IMG/VR virus record: IMGVR_UViG_3300037419_000871 | Source: a virus | Direction: 5' to 3' (one strand) | DNA: 64,000 nucleotides | Shown here: positions 5,907-63,085 of the stretch, piece by piece | Layout of the letters: every line of letters starts with the position of its first letter | Position numbering within the stretch: the first letter of the stretch is position 1 | Program-made: the position numbers and the translations under genes | The notes under the pieces: model-generated | The model's database searches: none | What the model was told of the DNA's origin: nothing | The model's input: the letters and a program-made list of their open reading frames with translations, nothing else

Positions 5907-6052
5907 ACTAAGTCATTGAAACAATTACATCATTACATTTGCAGGCAAAGCTAGACCGCGCGTCAGTGTGCGGTACGGAGCACGAACATGTGTGCAAATC
6001 TGTACAAACGGTGTGCAGTCTGTTCTTGATGTGTTCTTGGGGAGAAAATGAC

Positions 6053-6613
6053 GTGAAGCACGATAACGACAACAAGAAATCTATCGCTATAGATATCCCC
6101 CATATGACGCAAAGTGACGCCGATCGGTTCTGGAGCCTGGTTTCAGTCGAGGCGACAAATGAGTGTTGGCTATGGACCGGAGCGGCGAACGCCAATGGCT
6201 ATGGGAGATTTCGCATAGGGGAAAGTCTGTATTCGCCCCATCGAGTCGCACACAGTCTCGCCAATGGTGACATCCAGAATGTAGACGAATTCCATGGCAC
6301 GGTCGTCCGACACAAGTGCGATAACCCGCCATGCTGCAACCCGGCACACCTTGAGACGGGCAGACAGATCGATAACGTTGCCGACATGAAAGAACGTGGA
6401 AGAGATGACAGCGCTCGCGGCGAGGCATCCGGAAAAGCAAAGCTCACGGAGGATATGGTCCGCTTTATCCGCGAAAGCCAACTGTCCAGCAGAAAGTTGG
6501 CTGCGGAATTGGGTATTGTTTCGGACGGCACCATTCGTCAGATTCGCCGCGGTGAGCGTTGGGCGCACATTGCCGCGAATGACAACGGGAGCAAGAAAGA
6601 CAGGGCCGCCTAA
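6053..6613 (+). CDS. HNH homing endonuclease with C-terminal HTH
   Basis: RFWSLV, CWLWTG, GYG, HRVA, VRHKCDNPPCCNPAHLETG..IDN. Confidence 0.9.
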   Translation: MKHDNDNKKSIAIDIPHMTQSDADRFWSLVSVEATNECWLWTGAANANGYGRFRIGESLYSPHRVAHSLANGDIQNVDEFHGTVVRHKCDNPPCCNPAHLETGRQIDNVADMKERGRDDSARGEASGKAKLTEDMVRFIRESQLSSRKLAAELGIVSDGTIRQIRRGERWAHIAANDNGSKKDRAA

Positions 6614-9642: not shown

Positions 9643-9809
9643 GCGGCACCTACCGGCGTAGGGGCGGCAAAAGCACTGTGCCCGCGCTCGATAAGCATTC
9701 GACGCGCCGCCTCAGATATCGTGATGCCCGGCTCATCGCAGGTTTCATCCGCAACGGGTATCATCCCGTCGATCAGTTCAATGACCGCCAAAGCCTGTTC
9801 CAAGTTCAT
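9639..9809 (-). CDS. small hypothetical protein (56 aa)
   Basis: Read by hand; ATGA-coupled on both sides. Confidence 0.55.
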   Translation of the reverse strand: MNLEQALAVIELIDGMIPVADETCDEPGITISEAARRMLIERGHSAFAAPTPVGAA

Positions 9810-12356: not shown

Positions 12357-12418
12357 GATGCAATGATAATGATGACTATGATGATGACTGCGGCCAGCCC
12401 GAGCGGTCCAAGCAACAT
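12341..12418 (-). CDS. 25-aa single-pass membrane peptide
   Basis: MLLGPLGLAAVIIIVIIIIASWGPR with GGAGG RBS; between endolysin and i-spanin. Confidence 0.55.
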   Translation of the reverse strand: MLLGPLGLAAVIIIVIIIIASWGPR

Positions 12419-31680: not shown

Positions 31681-32346
31681 CTACTCGCCGGGTGACACGG
31701 GCGCGTCCTGCCGGATGCCCCGAAACTGCTGTTCCATTCTTGCTCGCTTTTCAGCGATGCGTCGCTTGGCTGCCGCCGCATCAGCGGCGCGCTGTTCTGC
31801 GGTCTTCTCGCCGGCTTCACGCTCCTTGCGGGCGCTATCCAGATCGCGCAACGCAATCGACGTACCTTCGTAGGCGGGCTCCGAAACGATCGAGACTTCG
31901 CGGAGGATCACTTCGTCGATCGTGCGCGACGGGATATCGCCCGTGTCATCCCAGGTTTGTTTAGTGACGATGAAGCCGAAAGACATGCCGGTGACATCGC
32001 CGCGCTCAATCAACGTCTGCACGTCGCGACCGTCAGACGTATCCGGCAAGTCGATCTCGACCGCCAGGCCCCTTTCGTCTTCATGAATACGCAAAGTGCC
32101 GGCGCTCTTGCGCCCAAGCACGCGCCCGCTGTTGTGATCGAAGTACGCCCGGACATCCGCGGTCTTCAGCGTTTCGGTAAAGGCTCCCGGTGCAATCGTC
32201 TCTCGGAAGTAATCGCCGATCTCGGTCATGTCATTGAAGACAGCCGCATAACCCGCAACGGTCGTTTTGCCATCGGCGGCACGGCGCTCAATGGGCGCCG
32301 TAAACGACCGAACCTCTTGTCCATTAAGGTCGGGCTTCTTGCTCAT
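31681..32346 (-). CDS. HK97 prohead protease
   Basis: GYAAVFN, FDHN, GMSFGF, EVSIVSEPAY. Confidence 0.95.
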   Translation of the reverse strand: MSKKPDLNGQEVRSFTAPIERRAADGKTTVAGYAAVFNDMTEIGDYFRETIAPGAFTETLKTADVRAYFDHNSGRVLGRKSAGTLRIHEDERGLAVEIDLPDTSDGRDVQTLIERGDVTGMSFGFIVTKQTWDDTGDIPSRTIDEVILREVSIVSEPAYEGTSIALRDLDSARKEREAGEKTAEQRAADAAAAKRRIAEKRARMEQQFRGIRQDAPVSPGE

Positions 32347-33650
32347 GCTGCTTTCGGTTCCTCAGTGTCTGGCGTGTCCCCATGCGCCGAATTGTCATTT
32401 GCCGGTTCACCGGACTCCGCGGGCTTGGCAACAGTCTGCACCGGCTGCGAGCCTAGCGGGACGGTGCCGCCCTGCATGAACAAGTCGTCAGCGTGCTCGT
32501 TCTCGTGGTCGGGACGATTTTCTAACGCCCGCCCCTCGTTCGGAGTCAGCAAGCCGGCCTGAATGCCGCGCGTGATGCCGTCGATACGCGACTTGAAGTC
32601 GCCGCGAAGCAGGCCATCGAGGTTATGTTCAATATACCGCCCCTTGGTGCCACGGCCGAACAACTTCAGATTCAACTCACCTTCAAACGCTTCGGCCCAC
32701 TGGCCGATCAGGTGCTTAACGAGATGCAAGTCCTGCTGCTCAGCGTTGCTGAACGTCGCGCGCGACAGATCCTGCAAAAACACGGGCGGCAACTGGAACG
32801 CGCGCGCGATTTCCTCAACCTGGAAACGCCGCGCCTCAACCATCTGGCCCTTGTCGGGCTCAAGGCCCACAGGCTTCAACTCGTAGCCGCCAGGAATCGG
32901 CGTGATAGGCTTGCCGCTCGCCTTGGCAGTATCGATCGCTCGGTTAATGTCCGCCAACATGCGGTTCATCTGCTCGGCACCGGCCGGGAGCGGTCCTGTC
33001 AACGCCAACGGAGGAACGCCACCGCCTGCAAAGAAGTTACTGGCGTAGTCGTTCATCGCCAAGGCAAGCTGAATCGCCTTCGATGCGTTGGCAATTGGCC
33101 CATAATGCCCAACGCCATCGGCGCGCAGCATGTATGGGATATCGATGACGTCCGCGGCATCGTAATCTCGGCCGTCAAACTTATAGACGAGTTTCAGCCC
33201 CTCTCGGCGAACCGTCGTCTTGCCGGGATCCATCGGCCAAATGGCTTCAACACCCTGCGGCGCACGCTCAATCCACGCAAAACCGCGCCCGCCCGTAAAC
33301 ACCTGTTGCCAGAAATACTGACGAAACTTGAACGAATCCATCTCGTCATTCGGCGCATCGTGAATGACGGACTCAAGTTTGCCACTAACCTTCTTCGGGC
33401 CATCCTTCGTCTCGCGGTACGCATGCAACGGCAGAGCAGCCATCGTGCGAGACAGAAAAGCAACCGCAGCAGCAACAGCAGGAACACCAAGCGCACTGTC
33501 AATCGTGATGTGCGCGAGGTTCTTTGCATCGATGCCAAAAAATGCGAGAAAATCGTGAGAACTGACGGGAATCGTGCCGTTTGTAGGCAGATTTCGCACT
33601 TCCGCTTGAGTTTTCGTGGCAGTTTCAGCCCTGTCAAACGGCCACATCAA
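32343..33650 (-). CDS. HK97-family portal protein
   Basis: IARAFQLPP, NAEQQ, LTPNEGRALEN. Confidence 0.95.
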   Translation of the reverse strand: MMWPFDRAETATKTQAEVRNLPTNGTIPVSSHDFLAFFGIDAKNLAHITIDSALGVPAVAAAVAFLSRTMAALPLHAYRETKDGPKKVSGKLESVIHDAPNDEMDSFKFRQYFWQQVFTGGRGFAWIERAPQGVEAIWPMDPGKTTVRREGLKLVYKFDGRDYDAADVIDIPYMLRADGVGHYGPIANASKAIQLALAMNDYASNFFAGGGVPPLALTGPLPAGAEQMNRMLADINRAIDTAKASGKPITPIPGGYELKPVGLEPDKGQMVEARRFQVEEIARAFQLPPVFLQDLSRATFSNAEQQDLHLVKHLIGQWAEAFEGELNLKLFGRGTKGRYIEHNLDGLLRGDFKSRIDGITRGIQAGLLTPNEGRALENRPDHENEHADDLFMQGGTVPLGSQPVQTVAKPAESGEPANDNSAHGDTPDTEEPKAA

Positions 33651-37615: not shown

Positions 37616-38545
37616 TTATGCGGCGCGGCGTAGCTCTGCTATTGCCGCGTCCACCTCCAGCACGGCTTTACGTTCCGCCTGCTTGGTATTGCCCCAGTTC
37701 TTAGCCGTCGCAATCTCCCGCATCGTCATGCCTGCCAGCGCCATATCAAGCACGTCCGGCACCGCATGGCCGTTGGCATCGATAGCCGCGATCATCGACA
37801 TCTCAGCAGCGTCAGGCGCACCAACGAACGAACCTTCCGTGGCCATGGCGTTTGCGTCAGGCTTCCCACAAAGGAAGTCCACCTTCCACGCCATGCCGGG
37901 TTTACACAACGTCACATTGGCTTGCGGGTTGGCCTCTGCGCACTGCTCTAGCGTCCGCGTACCATCGACACCATGGCTTGCCAGCAGATCGCGCAACTTC
38001 GACGGCACAACATACCCAACTGCCGCAGCGGTAAGCCGGACCAGAACATGGCACGCGCTCGGGTATCTGGTATCCGGCACCCATGCGGGCGGCATCTTAC
38101 CAATGCCGCGGAGCGACATCAGCCATGTTCCGTGCGCGTTGTTGCCCGCGGCGAGCGCTTTCGAAGTCTTGCGTCGACTGCCCTTTGGTTTCTTGTAGCC
38201 GTCCTTAGGCTTGAGCCAGAACTCCTCGCCCTCCTTGTTTAGGATCGGTGTGCCATCCTCCGCCGCTGCCCGGTATTCCGTCAGTCGGCCCTTGGCATCG
38301 AAGCGCAACCCGATTACGCCTTCTGGGTCCGGCTTGCCGTCCTTCACGGTGATGGCCGCGCGCCTGACTTCTTCGATGGTGGGGCGCATTACCATTTCGC
38401 TGTCGACGCCAATCCCTTCCGTTATGGGCACGTTGTCGTTCGCTACGGTGTTGCGCGCCTTAACGATATTGGCCAGAAACTCTGCATCGTCCTGACGGCC
38501 TAGTCGGATGAGGCGGGCGAACAGGCGGCCTGATGTCGGCTTCAT
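37616..38545 (-). CDS. putative late-gene transcriptional regulator with C-terminal sigma4/LuxR-like HTH
   Basis: VLDMALAGMTMREIATAKNWG; last early gene before tRNA and packaging operon. Confidence 0.55.
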   Translation of the reverse strand: MKPTSGRLFARLIRLGRQDDAEFLANIVKARNTVANDNVPITEGIGVDSEMVMRPTIEEVRRAAITVKDGKPDPEGVIGLRFDAKGRLTEYRAAAEDGTPILNKEGEEFWLKPKDGYKKPKGSRRKTSKALAAGNNAHGTWLMSLRGIGKMPPAWVPDTRYPSACHVLVRLTAAAVGYVVPSKLRDLLASHGVDGTRTLEQCAEANPQANVTLCKPGMAWKVDFLCGKPDANAMATEGSFVGAPDAAEMSMIAAIDANGHAVPDVLDMALAGMTMREIATAKNWGNTKQAERKAVLEVDAAIAELRRAA

Positions 38546-38730
38546 ACGCGCGCTCCTTCTAGCGCGGCGGCGCCAGCCTCAGTGAGTTTTGCCGTCGCCC
38601 CAAATGGATCATATTCGATCATGCCGCTATCCTGCAGGTTTGAGAGAATCCGCAACATTCGCTTGGAGCGCATCGCCCTGCTGGCCGATTCTTCTAGGTT
38701 TCGGCAAACATCAATTTCTTCAGTGTTCAT
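38542..38730 (-). CDS. small winged-helix-like protein
   Basis: LQDSGMIEY...KLTEAGAAAL. Confidence 0.55.
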   Translation of the reverse strand: MNTEEIDVCRNLEESASRAMRSKRMLRILSNLQDSGMIEYDPFGATAKLTEAGAAALEGARV

Positions 38731-39170
38731 GGTCTCTCCCCGTTATCATTCCCCGCCAACCACCCCCGCACCACCGATACCGCCTGTATCGCGCTGTCGG
38801 CCTCCGTGGCGGCCTTAATCACCGCCTGGTATCCAAACCCCAGACGCGCCAGCAAAGCGCCCCTGTCGCGCTGCTCTGGCGACAAACGGCCCTTAGCGGC
38901 CTTGAACTCGATCAGGCCCAGCCGCCCGCCCTCAAGGTAAACGCGCAGATCGTGCTCCCCGGCAACGAGTCCGGTTGCTTTCATGATGGTTGCGCTCTGC
39001 CGTGAGCGCCGGCCTGCCGCCATGTCGGCCGCGAGCGTGAACCGCCTGCCGAATTCCGGCATAGCGCGCAGCGCCCTGACCGCACTGGCCTGTATCTTCC
39101 ACTCCGGCACGGTGTCAGTCCGCCGCACAACGCGGGTGCCGTTTCGTAGCTTGGTTGTTTTGAATCCCAT
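38727..39170 (-). CDS. VRR-NUC domain nuclease
   Basis: PEWKIQ, GEHDL, IEFKAAKGRLSPEQ. Confidence 0.85.
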   Translation of the reverse strand: MGFKTTKLRNGTRVVRRTDTVPEWKIQASAVRALRAMPEFGRRFTLAADMAAGRRSRQSATIMKATGLVAGEHDLRVYLEGGRLGLIEFKAAKGRLSPEQRDRGALLARLGFGYQAVIKAATEADSAIQAVSVVRGWLAGNDNGERP

Positions 39171-39857: not shown

Positions 39858-42116
39858 TCACACCGCCGCTCTCGCCGGCCTCACAAACTTGATTTTCCTC
39901 CCCACATGCCGCGGATCGTCCTCGTCCACCTCGGCCAAGATGCCGTTGGCGATCCACGAATCCAGCGCCGCCTTGATGCGCCGTTTTTCCGGCGTCATGG
40001 CGCGGCTGGTTTCTATGTCGGCGCCCATGGCTTGCGCCAGGACGTAGCCGGCCCAATCGGATGACTGATCGCTCGCGCGGCAGTTCTGATTAGCCAGCCG
40101 CACCAGCACCTCGGCCCGCACGTCGTCTGGAATGGCCGCCGCAACGGCATCCTTGGACGGCCAGTTCCACTCCGTCACGACGCCGGCATGGTCTTGCGGC
40201 TTCAGGATGCCGGTGCCATTGCCTAAAGGCACGCTCTCCATCTTGCGCCAATGCTGACTGTTGTCGAGCTTGGTCAGATTGGCCTTGCCGTAGTGGATCC
40301 AGAAGTAGCTAAACCTGTCGTTCGGGTCTAAGCCCGCCTTGGTGGCCTGATCCTCTGTCATGCGGTTTAGCACCCGCACGGAACGCGCCGCACCAATCAG
40401 CGACACGGCTCCGCGGGCATCCTCCACGGTGGCCTCGCGGTCGGACATTTTGCGCAGGTGGTGTACCACGTCGACGGCGCAGTTGGTCATGTCCGCGATT
40501 TGCGCCCACAGCTTGGCCACCTTGTCGATCGCGCCGTTGTCGTTCTCATTGACGTGGTGCGTCGACACGAACGGGTCAATGATCATGACGTCGATGCCGT
40601 GGCGGCGGATTTGCTCCACGACAGCCTCGACAACCGGCTTGTTGATCTTCAGGCCGGTTTTCTTATCCTCCTCCATGATGACAAGTTCCTGCTCGCGTCC
40701 GGTGTCGAGGAACAGGCGGCCGGCGATGTCATCAGGCGCAAGATTGTAATGGAGGCATGCGGCCATGATCCGCCGGTCCATTTCGTCGCGCGGATCCTCG
40801 GCGTTGAACAGCCAGCAAGACAGGCGCGTGGGTGGCTTTGTGCCTGCCAGCGGCTTGCCTGACACCATAGAAAGCGCCTCCACGATACTGTTGGACGTTT
40901 TCCCCAAGCCACCCGGCGAGACGGTTACAGACACGAATTTGCGGATGTAGTGTGTACCGAACGCGAACTCTCTGCGGGGTAGTTTCTTGGGATCTTTGTA
41001 GGTGAACGGCGTGGCTGTGAAGGCTGGGCGCTCGGGCGCTGGAGTGTTGTCTTGCGTAAGCGATACGAACTCGGGGTCGGCGCCGTGGTTGCCCGGCTCT
41101 GGCGCGTGGTCAGCGCCGGGTGCTGCGGGCAGCGCAACGTCGTGCGCGCCGGTTTTGGCGGTTGCACTGGCCTTCCGTAGCCCGTTCTCAATCATCTTGG
41201 TAATGTCGATCAGCCGCGTGTTGTCGCCACGATCCGGCGCCGGGATATCGCGCGGTTGCTGGATGCCCGCAGCCAACCCGTTCTCGATTGTCTTGCAGCA
41301 CCGCGCCCAATCACGGCCCCAGCCGCGCGCAACGTCCTGCAGCAAGGCGCGCGCTTCGGATTCCGACAAAGCGCCGGCACCGACGAATGTGCCGAGGCAG
41401 AACGAAGCGTCGTTGAGAGAGTTGTTCCTCGACCCCATAGGCGCGCCGGCAAGTTCCGCCAACTCACGGTCAACCGCCGCGTTGACGTATGCGCTGTTGG
41501 TGTGGGAGTTGCCCGCGCGGATGGTTGTTTGCTCAGGCGCGCGTCGCACGACCAAGTCTAGCAACCACGCAGGCGCATCAGCGATGTCCGGTATCTTGTT
41601 GGCGTCGGGTTGCTCTACCCATTTGTAAGCGCGGCCATCAGACATGACGCTGCCGGCCGCGCAGACGTACCCGCCTTCCGAACGCAAATCCACGCCCGCG
41701 CCGAGGTTGCCGCGGTTGCGTGTGCCGTCGACGTATTTAAACAGGTAGTGCATTCCACCGTTGGGCGATTTAACGCGCGCGGTCTCTGGCAGCGGCCCGT
41801 GCTCCGCTTCCATCTCATGCAGCCACTCGAACCCATTTGCGGCTCCGGGTTTGTTGTCCACGTCGAGGACGAAGAACCCAGCATCCTTGCCGGTGGGAAT
41901 GCCTACGGCCGCATCCGGCCAGTCGTTGAACCAACGCTTGACGATGTGCGCAAACCGCGTTGCCCCGCGGAAGCCGTTTGATGTAAGAGGCGTTTTCTCG
42001 CCAAGCGTTGTCACCTCACCTGTATACGGGTCGGTGGTTTCCTCCGCGCGGCTGCGGCACGGGAAGACCTTCAGGCCCTGCGAGACGTAGAAGTTGGCGA
42101 GTTCAAGCGGCGTCAC
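39858..42116 (-). CDS. bifunctional primase-polymerase fused to AAA_25 (RepA-like) helicase
   Basis: VFPC..KTP, VLDVD, HYLF, DLRSEGGYV; SPGGLGKT Walker A, IIDPF, VVHHLRK. Confidence 0.92.
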   Translation of the reverse strand: MTPLELANFYVSQGLKVFPCRSRAEETTDPYTGEVTTLGEKTPLTSNGFRGATRFAHIVKRWFNDWPDAAVGIPTGKDAGFFVLDVDNKPGAANGFEWLHEMEAEHGPLPETARVKSPNGGMHYLFKYVDGTRNRGNLGAGVDLRSEGGYVCAAGSVMSDGRAYKWVEQPDANKIPDIADAPAWLLDLVVRRAPEQTTIRAGNSHTNSAYVNAAVDRELAELAGAPMGSRNNSLNDASFCLGTFVGAGALSESEARALLQDVARGWGRDWARCCKTIENGLAAGIQQPRDIPAPDRGDNTRLIDITKMIENGLRKASATAKTGAHDVALPAAPGADHAPEPGNHGADPEFVSLTQDNTPAPERPAFTATPFTYKDPKKLPRREFAFGTHYIRKFVSVTVSPGGLGKTSNSIVEALSMVSGKPLAGTKPPTRLSCWLFNAEDPRDEMDRRIMAACLHYNLAPDDIAGRLFLDTGREQELVIMEEDKKTGLKINKPVVEAVVEQIRRHGIDVMIIDPFVSTHHVNENDNGAIDKVAKLWAQIADMTNCAVDVVHHLRKMSDREATVEDARGAVSLIGAARSVRVLNRMTEDQATKAGLDPNDRFSYFWIHYGKANLTKLDNSQHWRKMESVPLGNGTGILKPQDHAGVVTEWNWPSKDAVAAAIPDDVRAEVLVRLANQNCRASDQSSDWAGYVLAQAMGADIETSRAMTPEKRRIKAALDSWIANGILAEVDEDDPRHVGRKIKFVRPARAAV

Positions 42117-44031
42117 GGATCACCTGTGTCTGGTTGTTGTTATTGTCGTTGGCGGCGGTGGGCGGCATCAGCCGCTGTATGCGCCGTCCTAGCCACGCGA
42201 AAAGCGGCACTGCCCAACTATTCCCCAGCGCCTTGTAGCGCGGACCGTCAGCCGCCAAGCGCGCAACGTCCGCGCGCGTCAGGTTCTTCGGATTACCGCG
42301 GGCCATGTACTTGACCCAATCGGCGTCGAGTTTCGCTTCGCTGACCTTGTTATACGGAATCGCGGTGTAGTCCGGCGACCACCAACGGCCGGCGTCGTCG
42401 AGCCACGCGCCGGGGTAGTCGGGACTGCATAAGAATTGAAACCCCTGCAGACGCTCGCATTCGCGCGGCGTGAGACGTCGGACGGCGGAGGTTAGCACAT
42501 GCGGCTTATCCCCACCGCCTGAGCTTGCGCGCAGCGCGGTGGCAACGTCGCCACCTAGTTCTGCCGTCGCGCCGCCTTCACGGCCACGGAGGGCGACGGT
42601 GCAGACCGCCATAGGATCGTGACGTCGCAAGGTTGGTGATAATTCTGCCGACGCGTCCGCTCCGAAGTCTACAGACTGGAACGCAATCGCAGGCATCACA
42701 CCCGCATTAGCATGGCTCGTGGTGTGTCCGCCGGCGCGTAGAGTTGGCGCTAGGTCGGTGGAAGCGTCGGCGCCGTAGTCCTTGGCGCTAAACGCGATGA
42801 CGTGAGGCGGGCGAGAGGGGCGGTTCTCCCCTTCGGCCCGCAACGTCCCAGCCACGTCGTCTTGCTTCCACCAACCTTGTCCAGTCTCGTGCATGACCGT
42901 TACAATCGGCGTGCCGCGACCCGTGCCGTCTTCCGATCCGTCCGCACCTTCGGCTTTCAACGCGTGACTGATAGGACCAGTGACGCCTACCGCAACCATA
43001 GTCGTCGACTCGTAGTCCTGCGATGAACCCTCGCGCGTTGTGTCGCAACGCGCGATCTCGGGTGCGTAAGCGACAGCAGAACGTGAGTGCCCGTCAGTCG
43101 TTAGAGTTGGTACGATTTCTTTTTCAAGTGTTACCATCTCTTCGTGTGCAGACTTTCGACCGTTGGGCCGCCCCTTATTCATATGAAGAAAGCAAGCCAC
43201 AACCGGACCATGCCCGCGCGTATCTCCGGTACGCTCTACTCCCCGGCCACTTGCCGTAAGGCTTGGTGCAACTGCGGCGGCAATTCCTTGCCCCGTTTCT
43301 CTGCTCGGCGGAGAATCCCGGCGCACGCTTTCTGGCTCAAAAAGAACCGCTGCGGGATCGGCCCCGTTTCCAAAATCTGCGACAACGATGACACGCTTGC
43401 GTCGTTGGGCCAGTCCGAAGTATTGGGCGTCGAGGACACGCCACGCCGCACGTCCTTTGGGTCCAGCGACCATACCCGCGTTAGGCCAGCGACGTCCCTT
43501 TGGTGGTGGTAGGGCATCTGCTGCGCCCACAAGTCCGGCGAGGAAACATCCGAAGGCGTTGTCTTTAGTTGAGAGAACTCCGGGTACATTTTCCCAGACT
43601 GCATTCCGAAGTCCATTGCCATTTGTCGTGCCATTGCCGGCGAGTTCATGAGCGAGCCTTACGAATTCGAGAGAAAGATTACCGCGCGCGTCGTCTAATG
43701 ACTGACGCAGACCGGCAACACTAAACGCCTGGCATGGCGTGCCGCCACACAGGATATCAACACGGCTAAGCGTAGCTGTATCGATCTTGGTGAAGTCGCC
43801 AAGGTTAGGTACACTTGGATAGTGATGCGCGAGCACCGCAGACGGAAACTTCTCAATCTCCGAAAATGCCACGGCCTGCCACTGCGGCCACGCTACGGAC
43901 GCCGCTTCAATGCCAGAGCATACGCTCAGGAAGCGCAGCGCCCCTGCGTTAGCCGGTGCGCAATGACCGCCACAATAATCTCCGCGGTCGTATCGTGCAG
44001 CGTCTGGACAATTATCATTCGCGTACTCCAT
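42103..44031 (-). CDS. C5 cytosine DNA methyltransferase with long repeated TRD region
   Basis: SVCSGIEAA (I), GGTPCQAFS (IV), WENVPG (VI), QRRKRV (VIII), LTPRECERLQGF (IX), YKALGNS (X). Confidence 0.93.
   Translation of the reverse strand: MEYANDNCPDAARYDRGDYCGGHCAPANAGALRFLSVCSGIEAASVAWPQWQAVAFSEIEKFPSAVLAHHYPSVPNLGDFTKIDTATLSRVDILCGGTPCQAFSVAGLRQSLDDARGNLSLEFVRLAHELAGNGTTNGNGLRNAVWENVPGVLSTKDNAFGCFLAGLVGAADALPPPKGRRWPNAGMVAGPKGRAAWRVLDAQYFGLAQRRKRVIVVADFGNGADPAAVLFEPESVRRDSPPSRETGQGIAAAVAPSLTASGRGVERTGDTRGHGPVVACFLHMNKGRPNGRKSAHEEMVTLEKEIVPTLTTDGHSRSAVAYAPEIARCDTTREGSSQDYESTTMVAVGVTGPISHALKAEGADGSEDGTGRGTPIVTVMHETGQGWWKQDDVAGTLRAEGENRPSRPPHVIAFSAKDYGADASTDLAPTLRAGGHTTSHANAGVMPAIAFQSVDFGADASAELSPTLRRHDPMAVCTVALRGREGGATAELGGDVATALRASSGGGDKPHVLTSAVRRLTPRECERLQGFQFLCSPDYPGAWLDDAGRWWSPDYTAIPYNKVSEAKLDADWVKYMARGNPKNLTRADVARLAADGPRYKALGNSWAVPLFAWLGRRIQRLMPPTAANDNNNNQTQVIRDAA
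43236..43649 (-). CDS. alternative-frame ORF nested in C5 MTase
   Basis: 137 aa, same strand, shifted frame; SDWPNDASVSSLSQILETGPIPQRFFLSQKACAGILRRAEKRGKELP. Confidence 0.6.
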   Translation of the reverse strand: MNSPAMARQMAMDFGMQSGKMYPEFSQLKTTPSDVSSPDLWAQQMPYHHQRDVAGLTRVWSLDPKDVRRGVSSTPNTSDWPNDASVSSLSQILETGPIPQRFFLSQKACAGILRRAEKRGKELPPQLHQALRQVAGE

Positions 44032-44399
44032 CACCACGGAATCTCCCTGCTCACAATCTCCCGCATGCTGTCGGCGTATGCGATAAACCCCAGCCGCCAG
44101 AACGTCGCCCACTCCTCTTCCGTCAACGTGGCAAGGTCTGTCTTTTGTATGGAGTCAAGGTATTCTCCGCCTGCGTTGCCGCCGTCTTCCAAGGCGCGTG
44201 TTTCGAACTCGTCCAGTTGCTTGCGTGGCATGTGATAGACCTTTGGTAATTTGGAGCGGACGCCGTTGTGTGTGTCGTCCAGGCATTCCCAGCACCCCCA
44301 TTTGATGGGTGCGCGGTCGTGCGGGGCATAGCCGATGTTGTCGTGGCGGCGTTTGCAGATGAAGCAAACGCCAACAAGTTCGTGGGCTAGGCTGGTCAT
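44031..44399 (-). CDS. CxxC-containing conserved phage protein (DUF6511-like)
   Basis: CFICKR...CWEC; GGEYLDSIQKTDLATL. Confidence 0.7.
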   Translation of the reverse strand: MTSLAHELVGVCFICKRRHDNIGYAPHDRAPIKWGCWECLDDTHNGVRSKLPKVYHMPRKQLDEFETRALEDGGNAGGEYLDSIQKTDLATLTEEEWATFWRLGFIAYADSMREIVSREIPW

Positions 44400-45979
44400 G
44401 CTGCGAACAAGTCGGCTTGTGGTGTGTTGTCGTTTGCCGGTTGCGCGGCTTGCGCCGTAGCTACTGGCAACGATGGAGCGGTAAGTCGCCGCTTAATGTC
44501 CTCCACATATTCCGCCTCGCGCTCGATAAGTACCGCACGGAAGCCTTCGCGCTCTGCCGCCTCTCCGGTCGTCCCCGATCCCGCAAATGGATCCAAGACC
44601 GTCCCGCCGGGCGGTGTGATAAGGCGGGCCAACCAAGACATAAGGGCCACGGGCTTGACGGTTGGGTGTTTCGATCCGGCGCGGTCGGCTTTGCTGGCTT
44701 TTGCTGAATAGAAGAATCGGGCGGCAGAGCCACCTGCGTCCCCGTAACGCATCGCTGCGCCGCCGATACCGAACATGCTGCTTTCGGGTCCGCTGTGTGT
44801 TCCCTCCGCAGCGGTGCGCGCCTTACCAGCGCCGTGCGTATTCGGAAACGCCCCGACCACTTCATCCGAGCCGTCGTGAATTACGTTGGCCGGCCAGCGT
44901 CCGGCACCACTTGGCTTCCAAGTTCCTTCCGTCACGACGCCGCCGTTGATATTCGCCCCATAAATTTTGTTCGGTGTGCTCTTGCCGCTGCGGCCTTCCA
45001 TCTCCGCAACATCCGCCGCACTCGTCCCAACCCTACACCCATCAATATTCAGCGCGCCGGTGCGCCAGCGCAGCACATTCGCGGCGACCGTGCCTTCGGA
45101 CAGCGGCTTGCGCGCGAGCACGATGGGTTCAAACGCCGGTTTGAGCGCGGTGCCCCAGCCCTCCCATTGGCGGGCGGCGTCGAGCACCGGAGTCGGCGCA
45201 AGCTGGCGGCCCGTAAAGCTTCCGACTGTGTTGCCGGACCCGCCGTGCAACCCGCCCGTCGTCTCGATTGTGCCGCGCTGCTTTGCGGCTTCGCCCCACT
45301 CACCTTTGCGCTCGTTCAGCCGCCACACATCGGAGTCCATTTCGTCGCCGAGCGAAAGGAAGGCTTTCAACTGCAGCCACTGTTCCCACTTCGGACACTG
45401 GCAACGATGCAATAGGCGCGACGTCCACCAGCCGCCCATGTCTGACGTGCCCATGTGAGTATCGATATCGCTCCGCGATTTACCGGCGCGATCCGCAGCG
45501 TCCGCTACAAACGTGGTTACGCGCAGAATATCGGGACGGTCGTCGCGCGCCTTATCAATCCCCTTGCTCACATCATGCGACTTCGGAAAACCCGTCCCAT
45601 ATACCCACATCAACGAGTCGCGAATTTCAAATCCCGCATCCTCGATCGCGCACGCCATGCGGTGATACCCGCGCGACGCACCGAACGCGGCGACATGCCC
45701 GCCCGGTTTCAACACGCGCAGGACGTCGACCCAAAACTCTTCGGAGAACGCGGTCTCGCCGGTATCCCAGGTCTTGCCCATGAACCCGGCCGACGCGCGC
45801 ATATATGCGTCGTTGCCCTTTGCTGGCGCAGCGTTCGCACCGCCGAACCGCTTGACGATGGAAACCAGTGCATAGGGAGGATCTGTGACGCAGCTATCCA
45901 GCGAATTATCCGGCAACTGCCGCAGCACGTCGCGGTTGTCGCCGTGGTACAACTCACAATTTCCAATAACTGTTTTCAA
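44396..45979 (-). CDS. N6-adenine/N4-cytosine DNA methyltransferase (beta class) with internal insertion
   Basis: VTDPPY, HPTVKP, VLDPFAGSGTT. Confidence 0.92.
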   Translation of the reverse strand: MKTVIGNCELYHGDNRDVLRQLPDNSLDSCVTDPPYALVSIVKRFGGANAAPAKGNDAYMRASAGFMGKTWDTGETAFSEEFWVDVLRVLKPGGHVAAFGASRGYHRMACAIEDAGFEIRDSLMWVYGTGFPKSHDVSKGIDKARDDRPDILRVTTFVADAADRAGKSRSDIDTHMGTSDMGGWWTSRLLHRCQCPKWEQWLQLKAFLSLGDEMDSDVWRLNERKGEWGEAAKQRGTIETTGGLHGGSGNTVGSFTGRQLAPTPVLDAARQWEGWGTALKPAFEPIVLARKPLSEGTVAANVLRWRTGALNIDGCRVGTSAADVAEMEGRSGKSTPNKIYGANINGGVVTEGTWKPSGAGRWPANVIHDGSDEVVGAFPNTHGAGKARTAAEGTHSGPESSMFGIGGAAMRYGDAGGSAARFFYSAKASKADRAGSKHPTVKPVALMSWLARLITPPGGTVLDPFAGSGTTGEAAEREGFRAVLIEREAEYVEDIKRRLTAPSLPVATAQAAQPANDNTPQADLFAA

Positions 45980-46203
45980 GACAACACCCCCTTCACTCTC
46001 AACGTTTCAAACAACCGCCGCAGCGTGTAACTGCGCACGAGCGACACGACGGTGAACAACAGGCCAATAGCGGCATGTTCACCTGCACCAACGTAAATCC
46101 CGAACATCGGGAAGATTGCCATCTGAGCCGCTATTGCTACGCAATAGCCGATTGCGATGTTGGCTAATGATTCCGCCAAGCTCGCGCGTCTGGATTGTTT
46201 CAT
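45976..46203 (-). CDS. small two-TM phage protein often found beside methyltransferases
   Basis: SLAESLANIAIGY, RSYTLRRLF. Confidence 0.75.
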   Translation of the reverse strand: MKQSRRASLAESLANIAIGYCVAIAAQMAIFPMFGIYVGAGEHAAIGLLFTVVSLVRSYTLRRLFETLRVKGVLS

Positions 46204-46264
46204 AGTATGTGCCCCGCTTGGTCGGGTTGCACGGGTGTCTCGGCCAACGGGCCGCGCACTACTG

Positions 46265-46450
46265 CTACTGCGTGCTACGCCGCGCAGTAGCAGGCTTTGT
46301 AGGTTGCTCTAGGAAATCGTAATCTTCCGCTATTTCTTCGACGGGATAATCCATATCGTTTCCTATGAACGCCACTCGATCGCGCCTCACATTCACAATC
46401 GACAGCCGGCCGTTGTGCTTGTCCATCACCCACCAATACCCGTCGTTCAT
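46265..46450 (-). CDS. hypothetical protein
   Basis: GAGG RBS; DGYWWV. Confidence 0.55.
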   Translation of the reverse strand: MNDGYWWVMDKHNGRLSIVNVRRDRVAFIGNDMDYPVEEIAEDYDFLEQPTKPATARRSTQ

Positions 46451-46459
46451 GTCGTCACC

Positions 46460-48166
46460 TCAGAACGGCACCTCAGAATCCCAACTCTCCCCCGCCGCCA
46501 TCAGCGGCTTCCAGTTGTCGTTGCTTGCGGTGGGCACGCTATCGCTCGCCAACTGCTCTCCAGCCTTCCAAGCATTCACGTTCTGGTATTTGCCGTTTAG
46601 CTTTAGTTGCACCTCTGCCGTCGTTCGCAGTTCGTCGGCGCGGTCTAGGAACTCCGCAACGGTTTTAGGGAAAGGAGCCTTACCGCCGTGGTCGCGCCAG
46701 TATCGATCTGACTTTGATTTGGGAAACGCCCGCTTTTTAGGATCTGGATGCTCTAAGTGTTGAGGGCAGACCCAATCATTGACGACGTTCAGACCGAGCC
46801 TGTAGCTGACCTTCACAGTTGGCGGGAAGCCGTGAACCTTCGGCGGATTCTCCCTGAACGTCCGGCCTGTTACCGCATGCCAAACGGGAGGCGCGGTGGA
46901 GAGGATTGGCGTTATGTCTGCACTTGCCTTGTGCTTAGGCTTGTCCGATTCCGGAAATTCAAAGCCACAATCGATACATACTCGCGCAGCCGCATGATTA
47001 ATGCATTGGCATTCGGGACAAACGCGGATAGGAGCCTCGCCTTGGCCCTTACCAGGCTGCCTGATCTGGACTGCATCAATAGGGCCCAGATCCGACACCA
47101 CACCAGCGAAGTCCAAAACGCGACAATTTTTCTTGCCGGGCGAAAGCCGCAACCCCCTGCCCACTTGCTGCACGTACAAGGCTGGGGACTTCGTCGGTCG
47201 CATCAACGCCAACAGATCGGTCGGCGGGTGATTAAATCCGATGGATAAAACGTTCACATTCGTAAGACAGCGAATCTCGCCACGCTTGTATGCATCAAGC
47301 GTGCGCCGTCGCTCGCCGGCGTCCATCGTCCCCTCGACCATGGCGCAGCTAACACCTTGGCGGATAAACGCATCCCTCACGTCAGCCGCATGCTGGACCC
47401 CAGCACAAAAGGCCAGCCAACTTTTGCGCCCCTCGGCCAATCCGAACTTGATGACCTCCGCGACGGCCGACTCTGTTACGTCAGACTTATTAACGGCCCG
47501 CTCCAATTCGCCAGAAATATATTCGCCACCTCGCGTGTGAACACCTGACACGTCGAATTTCGTATCCGTGGCCTTGCTTACAGGCGGAACAAGAAAGCCG
47601 TCGTCGATAAGGCGGCCAACGCCGACGTCAAATGCAACCGTCTTGAATAGCGAGTCCTCTGCGTCGACAAGCATTCCACTATCCATGCGATACGGCGTGC
47701 CGGACATGCCTAGAATTCGCAAATCAGGGTTGATCGCGCGAAGATCATCAATGAACCTGCGGTACATAGTTGTAGACTTCGGGCTAATTAGGTGGCATTC
47801 GTCGATGATAAGACAATCAACCCAGCCAATGATTACCGCCAGTTTGTAGACAGACTGAATCGAGCAAAACAGAACTTGCGACCGCGTGTCGCGCTGGCCA
47901 AGGGCTGCGCTGTTGATGCCAGCCGGGCAAAACGGCCAAGCGTCAACTAGCGCCTTATAATTCTGCGTCACTAACTCCCGCGTGTGAACGGCACACACAA
48001 ATCGAGCGTCAGGGAAGTCCGCGATCATGCGTTGGATAAACGCGGCCTGCATGATGGTTTTACCGGCGCCAACGCTAGCGACAAGCAGGGTCGACTCCAC
48101 GTCATCGAATTCCTTGATGACCGCAGAAACTGCTTCTTCCTGGTAGGGGCGCAATGTGAATGTCAT
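46460..48166 (-). CDS. SF2 DEAD/DEAH-like helicase with C-terminal Zn ribbon
   Basis: LRPYQ, GAGKT, DECH, SGTP, QQVGRGLR, CPEC...CIDC. Confidence 0.93.
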   Translation of the reverse strand: MTFTLRPYQEEAVSAVIKEFDDVESTLLVASVGAGKTIMQAAFIQRMIADFPDARFVCAVHTRELVTQNYKALVDAWPFCPAGINSAALGQRDTRSQVLFCSIQSVYKLAVIIGWVDCLIIDECHLISPKSTTMYRRFIDDLRAINPDLRILGMSGTPYRMDSGMLVDAEDSLFKTVAFDVGVGRLIDDGFLVPPVSKATDTKFDVSGVHTRGGEYISGELERAVNKSDVTESAVAEVIKFGLAEGRKSWLAFCAGVQHAADVRDAFIRQGVSCAMVEGTMDAGERRRTLDAYKRGEIRCLTNVNVLSIGFNHPPTDLLALMRPTKSPALYVQQVGRGLRLSPGKKNCRVLDFAGVVSDLGPIDAVQIRQPGKGQGEAPIRVCPECQCINHAAARVCIDCGFEFPESDKPKHKASADITPILSTAPPVWHAVTGRTFRENPPKVHGFPPTVKVSYRLGLNVVNDWVCPQHLEHPDPKKRAFPKSKSDRYWRDHGGKAPFPKTVAEFLDRADELRTTAEVQLKLNGKYQNVNAWKAGEQLASDSVPTASNDNWKPLMAAGESWDSEVPF

Positions 48167-48939
48167 GCCGCTAGCATTGCCTCTTCGACCATCTTTGCCG
48201 TGATATTGTCATTGGTTGGATGGAGATGCGCTCTACGCTCCATCCTGACGATTCTAGATACTTGCTTGGTATCCGTACCAATCTCTCGCGCGATATCGGA
48301 TAAAGACATCCCTGATGAATGCAGAACGTGGATGCGTCGCACATCATCATCAAACAGACTTACGCGACAATCTTGTGTTGGCTTCTTGCCTTGAACGTCG
48401 GCAATCATCCCGGCAGTGATTGGGTCATTGTCTGGATGCACGTGATTCCACCTGTCGCCAGAAGCTATGCGGCTAACCTGTTGCCTTCGAATGTTGAGCC
48501 CAGCAGCAATATCTTCTTGTGTCTTACCTTCAGAGCGAAGGACATGAATCGTGCGGGCTATTTCTGTCGTGACCTTGGACCACGGCGCAATGTCGCCAAG
48601 CTGTTTAGTTCCGTGCGCGATCTTATCAGCCTCGTTCTCGACTTGAGTTGCCCATCTGAGGCAGAACGGACTAACGCAACCCATACTCCCATTGCCGCAG
48701 TTATGAGCGGCTTGGTGTAGGTCGGACGGCGGATCACCATTAACTGATCTGCACACATACCTATGAGCCAGACCTGGATTAGCATCTATGGTGGCGCGAG
48801 CGTATCCCTTTGCGTCTCTATAAAACGGCCAGAAGACGCACCCCTTGATTTCATCCTTGCGGGCAATAATGTCATCAAGAAATGCGCGAGCTTCCCCGAG
48901 TTTTGCTCGACGTGGTTTGTTGTCATTCGCTGCTAGCAT
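48163..48939 (-). CDS. HNH-like homing endonuclease with two tandem HTH modules
   Basis: CVFWP..GYA, AHRYVC, AAHNCG..GCVSP..LRWATQVENEAD; duplicated QVSRI..RW.H.HP.ND. Confidence 0.8.
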   Translation of the reverse strand: MLAANDNKPRRAKLGEARAFLDDIIARKDEIKGCVFWPFYRDAKGYARATIDANPGLAHRYVCRSVNGDPPSDLHQAAHNCGNGSMGCVSPFCLRWATQVENEADKIAHGTKQLGDIAPWSKVTTEIARTIHVLRSEGKTQEDIAAGLNIRRQQVSRIASGDRWNHVHPDNDPITAGMIADVQGKKPTQDCRVSLFDDDVRRIHVLHSSGMSLSDIAREIGTDTKQVSRIVRMERRAHLHPTNDNITAKMVEEAMLAA

Positions 48940-48963
48940 TTACGCGCCTCCCGCTGATAATCC

Positions 48964-49470
48964 CTAAGCTGCAGCATTCTTTTTCTCGTTGTCATTCGCC
49001 GCACGCAGAAACGCGCGCGCATCACGGACTGTGCAATAAACAGAGGCCCGCGTTTTCCCGAACGCCCCACCAATCTCGGCGCCGGAATATCCAACTGCTT
49101 TCATGGTCAGCACTTCGGCCTCGTAGCGCGTGACGTTATTCAACGTCCGGGGAATGTCTGTGTAGTGTTCCTGATTGGCTGGTGACACTATCGGATGCGG
49201 CGAGAGCATCGTTTGTGTCCGGTCATTTCGCGCCAGCCGAGAGACAACCTTCAACACCTGAAACTCAAGCCACGGCGCAAACCCTCCCTCTGGCCCATCG
49301 TCGTACCAGTACCATTTGGAAAGCGCGTGCGCGAACGTCTCCTGGTAGATGTCTTCCGCATCAAGGGTGATCGCATATTTGCGTGATAGTTTACGGAGCA
49401 GCGGGTCGTACTGCAGGAGAAGTTTATCGAACCATGCGGGGCGCTGTTGGTTGTCGTTCGCGGGGATCAT
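48964..49470 (-). CDS. ECF-like sigma factor (sigma2 + sigma4 domains)
   Basis: DAEDIYQETF, FAPWL, GYSGAEIGGAFGKTRASV. Confidence 0.75.
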   Translation of the reverse strand: MIPANDNQQRPAWFDKLLLQYDPLLRKLSRKYAITLDAEDIYQETFAHALSKWYWYDDGPEGGFAPWLEFQVLKVVSRLARNDRTQTMLSPHPIVSPANQEHYTDIPRTLNNVTRYEAEVLTMKAVGYSGAEIGGAFGKTRASVYCTVRDARAFLRAANDNEKKNAAA

Positions 49471-50928: not shown

Positions 50929-51134
50929 CTCACCCCTCCCCGCACACCGTCATAAGCCGCCTTGCAGGCACGCGCGCGGGCAAGGATGGTGGGGTGCGCG
51001 CTGCGGTACAGGATTGGCGCGGTGAACCCGAGTGCGCCGGCAAGTTCTTCGTACATGGTTTCGCTCGTATCCAGGTTGGCGAGCACTTCGCCGATGATGT
51101 CGCACGCGGCGTTATAGGTTTTGTCGTCCATCAT
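50925..51134 (-). CDS. hypothetical protein
   Basis: Coupled ORF. Confidence 0.55.
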   Translation of the reverse strand: MMDDKTYNAACDIIGEVLANLDTSETMYEELAGALGFTAPILYRSAHPTILARARACKAAYDGVRGGVR

Positions 51135-52192
51135 GCGGCCTCCTTGACGCGCATCGGCATCACGAGTCCCAACCAATCTCCATTGCCTTGGAAGATCGCA
51201 GGCGTATTACCGTCTGCAAACGACGCGCGCACTTCATCGCCCGATGCCGCGCCCAAGACATCCGCGATGTAGGCCGTGTTGAACCCGATCTCGATAGGCT
51301 CGCCCGCGTATTCAGCCTCGACGTCTTCATGCGCGGAGCCGTCATCGCCGTTGGCGTCTACAGCGATGTTGTCGCCCGCAACCGTGAACTTCGCCGCACG
51401 CCCTCGGTTGCTTTCAATCGTGGATACGCGGGCTACGGCAGAGGCAAGCTCCTTCCGGTCGACCGTCACAACGTTGGTGTTGTTTCGCGGAATGACTCGG
51501 GAGTAATCCGGGAACGTCCCATCGATCAGCTTGGACACGATGATGGTATCCGCCGTGGCAAAGCGGACCTTGGTCTGCGACAGCGCGACGTCCACCACGC
51601 CGGCCGGCACGACGCCGACAGTCTTGGCCGGGATAATCACCGCCGGGATCTGCGGCATGCCGGACGCGGTGTTGTGCGCCAACCGGTGACCGTCCGTTGC
51701 TACGGCACGAATACCGCCCTCAGCCGTGCTGTGTAGGTGGACGCCGCACAGATAGAATCGCGTTTGTTCTGACGAGATGGCGAACTTGACCGGCGCGACA
51801 AGGTCGGCAAAGTCCAATTGGAAAGGCTCGCCAAGTTCGCCCGCGTCAAGGTGCGGAAAATCCGCAACCGGCAAGGTCGGCAGCGTGAACCGGCTGCGGC
51901 CGGATTTCACAACCAGCTTGTCGTCTTTGTGGTCCAGAGTGACGACATCGCCAGACAGGCGACGCGCGATATCGCTCAGGCGTTTGGCGTCGACGGTGGT
52001 GCTGATTTCGCCGTCGCAGTGAGTCATGGCGCTGTACTGGATATCCAGATCGGTGCCAGTTACCGTCAGTTTGCCGCCGTCCGTGGACAGCAGCACGTTG
52101 GCAAGGATAGGAATGGTGTTGCGATGCTCCACCACCTTGGAAACAGCCGCCAGCGTTCGCGCCAAATCGGCGCGTTGAATTGTGAGGGTCAT
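51131..52192 (-). CDS. dnaN: DNA polymerase III beta sliding clamp homolog
   Basis: RNTIPILANVL, TGTDLD, TRFYLCGV, VATDGHRLA, IDGTFPDY, IGFN..Y, VMPMR. Confidence 0.95.
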   Translation of the reverse strand: MTLTIQRADLARTLAAVSKVVEHRNTIPILANVLLSTDGGKLTVTGTDLDIQYSAMTHCDGEISTTVDAKRLSDIARRLSGDVVTLDHKDDKLVVKSGRSRFTLPTLPVADFPHLDAGELGEPFQLDFADLVAPVKFAISSEQTRFYLCGVHLHSTAEGGIRAVATDGHRLAHNTASGMPQIPAVIIPAKTVGVVPAGVVDVALSQTKVRFATADTIIVSKLIDGTFPDYSRVIPRNNTNVVTVDRKELASAVARVSTIESNRGRAAKFTVAGDNIAVDANGDDGSAHEDVEAEYAGEPIEIGFNTAYIADVLGAASGDEVRASFADGNTPAIFQGNGDWLGLVMPMRVKEAA

Positions 52193-53052: not shown

Positions 53053-53652
53053 TTACGCCGCGCGCTTCCCCCAGGGGCGGCTCTTGCCAGCCACTGCACC
53101 CGTAGCCGCCGCACCGCCGTTGCCAGTCGTGCGCGCGTCACCACTTGCAGGCCGGTTGTCGTTGGCGGGCTTGCGATTGTCGTTGGCCGCCGCGGGGGCT
53201 GTGACGCCGATCTCGGGCATGTTGGGATCGTCGGCGTGATAGAACTTCTTCACCTCGTTGCGAGGCGCGTAAGTCGTGTTGCCTACCTTGCGTTCTTTCG
53301 ACAGGCCGACCTTTGCCGCAAATCCGTGGAAGTGAAGCATCTCGCTGTCATCCACATCGCCCTCGATACCAGTTGCGGCGATCAGATGTTCAAGCTGGCC
53401 TTGTCCAATTTCTTGAGTCTTCGGATTGGTGTGCTCCAGCATGATATTTCCGAAGATGAGACGGCCCTTGTATTCCTCCGGCTCGATCACGCTGTAGCGC
53501 AAGGCGAGCATCTTGCCCTGACCCTTTTCGGTGTCGGTGTCCTTGATTTCCGACTGGATAATCTCCAACGCATAGATGCCTTCGGGGAGATTTTCGAAAT
53601 CGTTCTGGTCGTCTACTTCTGCTGCTTTAACGCTTCGTCCAAGAATTGCCAT
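53053..53652 (-). CDS. DUF669 single-stranded DNA-binding-like protein
   Basis: LPEGIY, EYKGRLIF, IGQGQL, RNEVKKF. Confidence 0.85.
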   Translation of the reverse strand: MAILGRSVKAAEVDDQNDFENLPEGIYALEIIQSEIKDTDTEKGQGKMLALRYSVIEPEEYKGRLIFGNIMLEHTNPKTQEIGQGQLEHLIAATGIEGDVDDSEMLHFHGFAAKVGLSKERKVGNTTYAPRNEVKKFYHADDPNMPEIGVTAPAAANDNRKPANDNRPASGDARTTGNGGAAATGAVAGKSRPWGKRAA

Positions 53653-54084
53653 GTAATTCCCGTTGGCTTGCGGGTTGCTCCTTCGGAGCGATGCACTCGG
53701 CAAAGGGCCGATCGTGCTACTGCACTAGCGTGCAGTTAGTCGTTCGTGTCTTGCTCCACAGCGTCCAGTTTCACGATGAAGTACGCGAATGTCGGATGCC
53801 ATGTGACATCGATAACGCGCTGCTTGTCTTTCATCTGAGCGTCTACCCACGCCTGCAGAACGTCGTTCATGCTGGCCTTGTTCAGGTGCAGTTCGTTGGT
53901 ACCGAGCATCACGCCGCCTCCATTCCACGTTGCTTTCCTTCGTCATACCCATCGGCAACCATTGGCCAATCAAAAGCCCGGCCGTTGCTCACCAGCAGCA
54001 TCATGCCCTTACGCGCATGAGCCGGAGGCGGGTTGGGAAGCAGCGCGCGCACGAGCGTTACGCTGTTGCAGCGGAGGGCGGGGA

Positions 54085-62619: not shown

Positions 62620-62841
62620 TTGTCACATGATCTGGATGATGTGATGACCGCCCCCGACCTCATAGCCGATCAAGCGATTCTCACCATCAGCGCATGGCAA
62701 CGTCAAGCTCTCCCCTCGTTGGATGAAGCAATGCTGTTGCTCTACCTCGATCAGGCGCGGCGCTGGGAAGCAAACGACAACCACCAGGATCACTACGGCG
62801 CCACGCTGGATGTGGTGCGCAGGGAGATGGCACATGGCTAA
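62620..62841 (+). CDS. hypothetical protein
   Basis: Start uncertain (62620-62647). Confidence 0.55.
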   Translation: MSHDLDDVMTAPDLIADQAILTISAWQRQALPSLDEAMLLLYLDQARRWEANDNHQDHYGATLDVVRREMAHG

Positions 62842-63085
62842 CGCAAGCGACATGCCTGCGAAGATTTGGTGGGAGGCGGGCTTCGCAGGGGCGAGCGACG
62901 TCGCTCCGGTATCGAAGGACTACACCCCCTACATCCGCGCCGATCTGGTCGAGCCTCTGGTAGAGGCGCTGCGGAAGGCAGAGGAACTTTATCAGGTCGG
63001 CTTGTTGAACGCGCCTGATAACCTTGCCGATGAAGTCGTCACGCTCCGTCGCGCCGCCCTCTCATCCTGGGAGGCCGGGCAATGA
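62834..63085 (+). CDS. hypothetical protein
   Basis: MPAKIW...YIRADL motif. Confidence 0.65.
   Translation: MANASDMPAKIWWEAGFAGASDVAPVSKDYTPYIRADLVEPLVEALRKAEELYQVGLLNAPDNLADEVVTLRRAALSSWEAGQ

Follow-up and report, generated by a model that had tools for sequence, protein, structure and literature searches.

A peptide resembling the host ssrA tag recurs at the termini of early proteins and the portal in a temperate phage lineage

The window analyzed here is the whole 64-kb stretch of virus record IMGVR_UViG_3300037419_000871, a near-complete temperate siphovirus-type genome (58% GC) in which a short peptide, Ala-Asn-Asp-Asn (ANDN, hereafter the head), recurs at the ends of unrelated proteins and in several of them is followed by a C-terminal Ala-Ala, as in the ssrA tag encoded by transfer-messenger RNA (tmRNA). 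The window encodes an integrase, an excisionase-like (Xis) protein and an HK97-type head module (terminase, portal and S78 protease). A long leftward early operon encodes a Sak4-like ATPase, a DUF669 protein, a DnaN-type clamp (51131–52192), a sigma-like factor, an SF2 helicase, two DNA methyltransferases, a Prim-Pol/AAA primase, a VRR-NUC-like nuclease and HNH endonucleases. The gene order is that of the cultured Rhizobium phage 16-3, and the most similar relative recovered, whose helicase is 88% identical, is integrated in a Bradyrhizobiaceae metagenome-assembled genome (MAG) as a prophage. The probable hosts are bacteria of the Bradyrhizobium type. The window itself is of metagenome origin, and its genes are also present on metagenome contigs. 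Gene calls and start codons were obtained with a custom codon-usage caller; public gene calls give the same starts for the sigma-like factor (168 amino acids) and for the HNH endonuclease at 48163 (258 amino acids).

About a dozen early proteins and the portal carry the head. An earlier sequence-only reading of this DNA had quoted a series of such termini, and every one of them is present in the gene to which it was attributed, as are the N-terminal copies. The copies are given below by coordinates, strand and protein.

4130–4159 (+): N-terminus of the Xis-like helix-turn-helix (HTH) protein; two ANDN, at residues 4–7 and 10–13, counted from a GTG start at 4121
6572–6613 (+): C-terminus of an HNH endonuclease (5939–6613); AANDN and 8 residues ending Ala-Ala, with no overlapping gene downstream
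9806–9844 (−): C-terminus of a DNA-repair exonuclease (9806–11080); AANDN and 7 residues ending Ala-Ala-Ala
32343–32405 (−): C-terminus of the portal (32343–33650); PANDN and 15 residues ending Ala-Ala
38432–38443 (−): ANDN near the N-terminus (residue 36 of the longest open reading frame, ORF) of a protein with no known function (37616–38545), which ends Arg-Ala-Ala
38727–38756 (−): C-terminus of the VRR-NUC-like nuclease; AGNDN and 4 residues, head only
42103–42156 (−): C-terminus of the C5 DNA methyltransferase (42103–44112); AANDN and 12 residues ending Ala-Ala and the stop, a full look-alike
44011–44031 (−): N-terminus of the C5 DNA methyltransferase; M-E-Y-A-N-D-N, head at residues 4–7, the ATG overlapping the preceding stop (TGATG)
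44396–44440 (−): C-terminus of the N6/N4 DNA methyltransferase (44396–45979); PANDN and 9 residues ending Ala-Ala and the stop
46460–46528 (−): C-terminal tail of the SF2 helicase; ASNDN and 17 residues ending E-V-P-F, a head without Ala-Ala
48163–48219 (−): C-terminus of an HNH/HTH endonuclease (48163–48939); PTNDN and 13 residues ending Leu-Ala-Ala and the stop
48919–48939 (−): N-terminus of the same HNH/HTH endonuclease; M-L-A-A-N-D-N
48964–49002 (−): C-terminus of the sigma-like factor (48964–49470); AANDN and 7 residues ending Ala-Ala-Ala and the stop, with no overlapping start after it
49450–49470 (−): N-terminus of the sigma-like factor; M-I-P-A-N-D-N
53155–53190 (−): two heads (AAANDNRKPANDN) past the domain core of the DUF669 protein (53053–53703), which ends Arg-Ala-Ala (53056–53064)

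A full tag look-alike, (A/P)(A/T)NDN with 7–15 further residues and Ala-Ala, closes seven proteins, and ANDN occupies residues 4–7 in four (Xis, the C5 methyltransferase, the HNH endonuclease at 48163 and the sigma-like factor). Seven of the nine C-terminal head copies end in Ala-Ala, the exceptions being the helicase and the VRR-NUC-like nuclease. Motif carriers are limited to non-structural genes and the portal, the only late protein in the window with either a head or an Ala-Ala end. The description of the motif as genome-wide must be narrowed to this extent.

ANDN is the top tetrapeptide of the phage proteome despite containing two rare residues, with 14 copies against 0.17–0.19 expected (Poisson 1.8e-22); within-protein shuffles gave a mean of 0.19 copies and a maximum of 2 (300 shuffles). 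The sequence-only reading had proposed a count against shuffled and host proteomes, and the excess holds against both, since the 14 copies fall in 19,430 phage residues and only 2 were found in 108,815 residues of the host, the lysogen that carries the nearest relative. The tripeptide NDN occurs 21 times in six frames, and 19 of these occurrences are read in frame within called genes. Fourteen of the 19 (two Xis copies added by hand) are ≤20 residues from a protein terminus, where ∼22% would be expected; the scripted count that omits Xis gives 12/17 (binomial 2.7e-5). All motif copies lie outside or border the Pfam/PHROG profile matches. Two occurrences were set aside: NENDNG of the primase (40536–40544) is a conserved internal domain motif outside the phenomenon, and the NDN copy at 12362 is in a non-coding frame. 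A doubtful 73-amino-acid ORF (62620–62841, +) has EANDN 19 residues ahead of its stop (copy at 62773) and overlaps a better-scoring ORF in another frame (62723–63085).

Synonymous variation of the motif codons, which the sequence-only reading had taken as a sign of selection on the peptide, is borne out: all three wobble positions are variable, and the motif draws on its codons as genes elsewhere in the genome do (Fisher 0.30 for Asn, 0.24 for Asp). Among the 64 tripeptides of queuosine-decoded residues (N, D, H and Y), NDN is the sole enriched one. At the DNA level, the 4.4-Mb lysogen genome contains 34 sites with the pattern GCNAAYGAYAAY; the related prophage accounts for 13 and the tmRNA gene for one, and the other 20 are internal or non-coding, none of them tag-like. 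Related phage contigs (62–141 kb) have 13–18 sites each, and the reversed-pattern control gave 0–2. Across 83 distinct NDN copies from the window and the related loci L001–L007 and L033, Ala or Pro stands at position −2 in 66/83 and Ala at −1 in 61/83, and the consensus reaches (A/P)-A-N-D-N-x-P, with Pro at +2 in 34/83. As judged from these sequence statistics, the recurring (A/P)-A-N-D-N is a short linear motif selected at the protein level.

The second element, the Ala-Ala C-terminus, is found in 22 of the 99 called window proteins. These are 21/72 non-structural proteins vs. 1/27 late proteins (p = 0.006), and the phage excess over 400 kb of the lysogen chromosome, where 14/342 proteins (4.1%) end this way, is highly significant (p = 2e-7). 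The two elements go together, with Ala-Ala at the end of 8/11 NDN-bearing early proteins vs. 13/61 of the other early proteins (p = 0.0015). Tails that end in Ala-Ala most often have 7–9 residues after NDN (13/24 distinct tails; range 5–21); the native tag has 8.

It had been noted that terminal Ala-Ala might be fully explained as a by-product of a Shine-Dalgarno sequence combined with an ATGA/TGATG stop/start overlap, and the comparison rejects this as a full explanation. Non-overlapping early genes still end in Ala-Ala in 9/38 cases (p = 1e-4 vs. the host rate of 4.1%), and late genes with a stop/start overlap do so in 1/12. The Shine-Dalgarno sequence accounts for the Glu of the frequent xEAA ends, and the penultimate codon falls in the spacer and is unconstrained. 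An early-operon junction, GAG GCG GCG TGA TG, recurs at 8767, 49697, 53909, 55246 and 7804 and combines a Shine-Dalgarno sequence, Ala-Ala and a stop that overlaps the next start, so that many early genes start V-M when the longest ORF is taken, and their products end xEAA. Separately, 8/42 called proteins of Synechococcus phage Ssp-JY40 (L036) end in Ala-Ala and zero contain ANDN; its host group presumably lacks SspB.

The tmRNA of the lysogen of the closest relative encodes ANDNYAPVAQAA, and ANDNYAPVA(Q/L/V)AA is encoded by 21/24 tmRNA genes sampled in the host family. With the tmRNA-borne alanine included, the native host-family tag is A-A-N-D-N and 8 residues ending Ala-Ala. A comparison with the host tag had been called for, and it shows the phage head to be identical to the host-family head, the spacing to peak at 7–9 residues vs. 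8, and the Ala-Ala end to be shared. The alphaproteobacterial tag (Caulobacter AANDNFAEEFAVAA, read with SspB-alpha) likewise has the A-A-N-D-N head, the Ala-Ala-COOH end and, as in most full phage copies, a gap within 7–9 residues, and the phage copies probably share its placement at a flexible terminus. The phage peptides differ from genuine tmRNA tags in being gene-encoded, with varied codons and spacers, rather than added by trans-translation; they are mimics, not tags. Their spacers are unrelated to that of the native tag, and they are often reduced to the head and are sometimes N-terminal or tandem.

SspB-alpha reads the NDN part of the tag. In E. coli, residues 1–7 of the tag are bound by SspB, which thereby tethers the substrate to ClpX (PMC9963277). 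Proteins given an encoded ssrA tag in Caulobacter undergo rapid proteolysis that is accelerated by SspB, and sspB has been deleted to slow it (PMC9393093). SspB (PF04386), homologous to the solved Caulobacter and Agrobacterium proteins, is present in 23/26 host-family genomes, where it adjoins the tmRNA gene. The lysogen MAG yielded no SspB, probably because the contig, which stops 59 nt past the tmRNA gene, ends where sspB sits in related genomes. A phmmer search of all six-frame ORFs of the window revealed no phage-encoded SspB.

Three observations on the host side may be added. The tmRNA gene of the Bradyrhizobiaceae-type family lies directly next to sspB, on the same strand (L141–L161 with L009–L012; e.g., G005:C19 14320–15350). 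Three lower-scoring alpha-type tmRNA genes (L162, L163 and L164) encode another tag, ANDNVRMNEVRLAA; genome G003 has a ANDNVRMNEVRLAA tmRNA gene in addition to the canonical one next to it, and this extra copy may be borne by a mobile element. In host genome G001 (L119, L123), two ORFs seem to begin M-S-A-N-D-N and M-A-N-D-N and could represent native proteins that carry the head at their N-terminus.

The trait is conserved among relatives of the phage. Seven related loci (helicase 45–88% identical) have 11–18 NDN per 12–22 kb each, and Ala-Ala closes 29–37% of the proteins in the five related loci analyzed. In the orthologue sets the head is retained as the spacers diverge, and in two families it comes and goes as a 4–5 residue insertion. 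The C-terminal tag of the C5 methyltransferase is kept, with different spacers, in the orthologues of L001, L002 and L003. The N-terminal head of the sigma-like factor is present in 5/6 other related loci read (L001 is uncertain), and the VRR-NUC-like orthologues have AANDN in L003 and L007, GNDN in L001 and DNDN in L004. A broad protein search started from the sigma-like factor gave only 2 clusters. Rhizobium phage 16-3 has 11 ANDN in 9,450 residues (4e-22), Ala-Ala ends on 15/52 proteins and tandem heads in its helicase; its portal, which bears the full tag, is its only structural protein ending in Ala-Ala. Among 64 distinct related portal C-termini, 25 have NDN and Ala-Ala, 4 NDN only, 4 Ala-Ala only and 31 neither, with spacers mostly of 8–10 residues.

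Some carriers have further features. The heads of the DUF669 protein sit 33–40 residues from its end, and homologues outside Rhizobium-type phages match only to about residue 137–159. The SF2 helicase and all of its orthologues (L001–L007 and L033) end D/E-x-E/D-(V/I)-P-F, like the tip of the bacterial single-stranded DNA-binding protein (DDDIPF), which may be a second, distinct terminal mimic on an NDN-bearing tail. Both methyltransferases (42103–44112 and 44396–45979, −) are far longer than their family profiles, suggesting large insertions: in the C5 enzyme (669 amino acids), profile positions 207–491 are spread across residues 58–647, and the N6/N4 enzyme has 527 amino acids.

SspB residues 1–125 from a host-family genome were folded together with the C-terminal 40 residues of the exonuclease (9806–11080). 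The fold scored 0.56, with the best of 3 controls at 0.00. Confident contacts involve tail residues 27–36 (QVAANDNEER), and the pLDDT (predicted local distance difference test) of the tail is ∼50. The mark that this pair passes is reached by 51/78 solved complexes and 2/108 mismatched pairs; it is reached with a score ≤0.60 by just 5 of those 78 solved complexes, but by all 4 passing mismatches (of 180).

These data suggest that the phage probably encodes a two-part mimic of the ssrA tag that couples its early proteins to host SspB and ClpXP. We infer that (i) host SspB-alpha would bind the ANDN head in a flexible terminus; (ii) the tail of SspB itself would tether the phage protein to ClpX; and (iii) ClpX would engage the free Ala-Ala C-terminus, with degradation of the protein by ClpXP. 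N-terminal and tandem heads could then serve to tether proteins whose C-terminus is Ala-Ala or a weaker degron. The outcome would be short lifetimes, set by the host, for early proteins such as the excisionase, the sigma-like factor, the nucleases, the methyltransferases and the DUF669 protein, and the removal of unassembled portal. The interpretation of these termini as host degrons, as the sequence-only reading had it, is backed on the side of tag mimicry by the head, the spacing, the coupling with Ala-Ala and the presence of SspB in the host family; on the other side, the Tyr/Phe that follows NDN in the native tag is absent from most copies.

That last difference is the first of several points that weigh against delivery to ClpXP: in the 83 copies, position +1 is mostly R, E, T, G, Q or V and Pro is frequent at +2, and the affinity for SspB may be low or the reader may be different. 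Heads without an Ala-Ala partner occur in the helicase, the VRR-NUC-like nuclease and Xis. The distribution of the trait is lineage-restricted; it is absent from a Roseibium phage whose portal is 60% identical, and so does not follow the host alone, and is only faint in Rhizobium phage RHph_Y3_1. Portal-tail states (64 tails) change just 8 and 6 times on a tree built without the tails, and because there are so few changes the raw association of NDN with Ala-Ala on portals (1e-9) is largely attributable to shared descent. The SspB fold is graded as weak support by the calibration of the tool, and its pass may reflect memory of the solved SspB-tag complex; since a like complex has already been solved, the fold shows likeness rather than binding. 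Finally, the host tag is inferred from the lysogen of a relative (helicase 88% identical), the window itself being metagenomic.

A second explanation, which we judge unlikely, is that the motif docks its carriers onto another partner, such as the phage DnaN-type clamp or the DUF669/Sak4 pair, and that its likeness to the tag is coincidental. Sliding-clamp docking motifs (bacterial QL[SD]LF, PIP boxes and the T4 gp45-binding tails of gp55 and gp33) are also short and sit at extreme termini, on many proteins of DNA metabolism as well as on a phage sigma-like factor. The carriers described here are mostly DNA-metabolism proteins with the motif at the extreme N- or C-terminus, the trait is strongest within one phage lineage, and the extended consensus (Pro at +2, no aromatic residue at +1) is unlike the native tag. 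The phage sequence is, however, different from the known clamp-binding motifs and polar where those are hydrophobic, and it is also found on the portal and Xis, neither of which belongs to the replisome. Homologous helicase, Sak4, DUF669, Cas4-type exonuclease and clamp genes are present in Pseudomonas phage NP1 and Variovorax phage VPv62, yet these phages show zero ANDN and 0–1 Ala-Ala ends. Docking would also leave unexplained the identity of the head with that of the host tag, the match in spacing and the accompanying Ala-Ala ends.

We consider it quite improbable that the heads bind SspB in order to subvert or block it and not to have the phage proteins destroyed. A dozen abundant early proteins would then titrate dimeric SspB, and their Ala-Ala ends would occupy ClpX too, so that clearance of tmRNA-tagged host proteins would stall or ClpXP would be re-directed during infection by distributed motifs, without a dedicated inhibitor gene. 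Such sequestration would require neither Ala-Ala nor the native spacing, and it accommodates the many unpaired heads (helicase, VRR-NUC-like nuclease, Xis and the N-terminal copies), the tandem heads in Xis, the DUF669 protein and the 16-3 helicase, and the early synthesis of the carriers. Delivery needs both elements, and the association of the head with an Ala-Ala end (p = 0.0015) at a spacing like that of the native tag argues for it. The portal, a late structural protein, bears the complete tag here and in 16-3, and a single dedicated inhibitor would be simpler than motifs spread across a dozen enzymes.

A nucleic-acid or translation signal (an A-rich junction element, a recombination linker, a protein-binding DNA site or a queuosine-codon run) is very improbable and largely refuted: the termini of tightly packed genes are indeed gene junctions, the tail after the head is partly purine-rich and can include the Shine-Dalgarno sequence for the gene that follows (EERK ahead of the ATGA overlap, 9806), and Asn/Asp codons are read by queuosine-modified tRNAs, but frame-locking (19/21 copies), free wobble positions and genome-average codon use led to the rejection of a DNA or RNA motif, the lack of enrichment of other queuosine-codon tripeptides led to that of the codon run, the reversed DNA pattern is rare (0–2), the preceding Ala or Pro-Ala is conserved as peptide, and copies occur without a downstream gene (6572–6613) or 33–40 residues from the end (DUF669).

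An encoded ssrA-tag mimic that would deliver phage proteins to ClpXP has partial precedents. Host proteases handle single phage proteins: ClpXP acts on lambda O, the Mu repressor and MuA, and Lon/FtsH on lambda Xis, CII and N. The present case resembles these in that early regulators and replication proteins of temperate phages are the substrates and host proteases the agents, with some of the signals C-terminal; unlike those individual degrons, one modular motif matched to the host tag is found on a dozen unrelated proteins across a phage lineage. Cellular ssrA-like C-terminal degrons, namely the ClpX 'C-motif 1', the terminal Ala-Ala of Caulobacter CtrA and those of mycobacterial anti-sigma factors (bioRxiv 10.1101/491043), and those in a screen of C-terminal tags (PMC10862746), share encoded Ala-Ala-type ends recognized by ClpX; in contrast to the phage motif, they generally have no SspB-binding head and are not proteome-wide. 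It is thus already known that single phage proteins are degraded by ClpXP and that cellular proteins have ssrA-like ends. Our literature search found no prior account of this motif in phages, nor of a host-tag copy spread over a dozen unrelated phage proteins.

If the peptides do deliver their carriers to ClpXP, this temperate phage lineage would set the lifetime of its early proteome by one portable, host-matched peptide code rather than by a degron peculiar to each protein. Such a code would provide a mechanism to erase nucleases, methyltransferases, the excisionase and the sigma-like factor as lysogeny sets in, and to remove unassembled portal subunits, and it would tie phage timing to the load on the ribosome-rescue and ClpXP system of the host. 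The tails would provide natural, graded SspB-dependent tags for alphaproteobacteria, and phage 16-3 with Sinorhizobium meliloti is an existing genetic system suited to the idea. More broadly, proteome-wide statistics of short motifs can expose virus-host interfaces overlooked by domain annotation.

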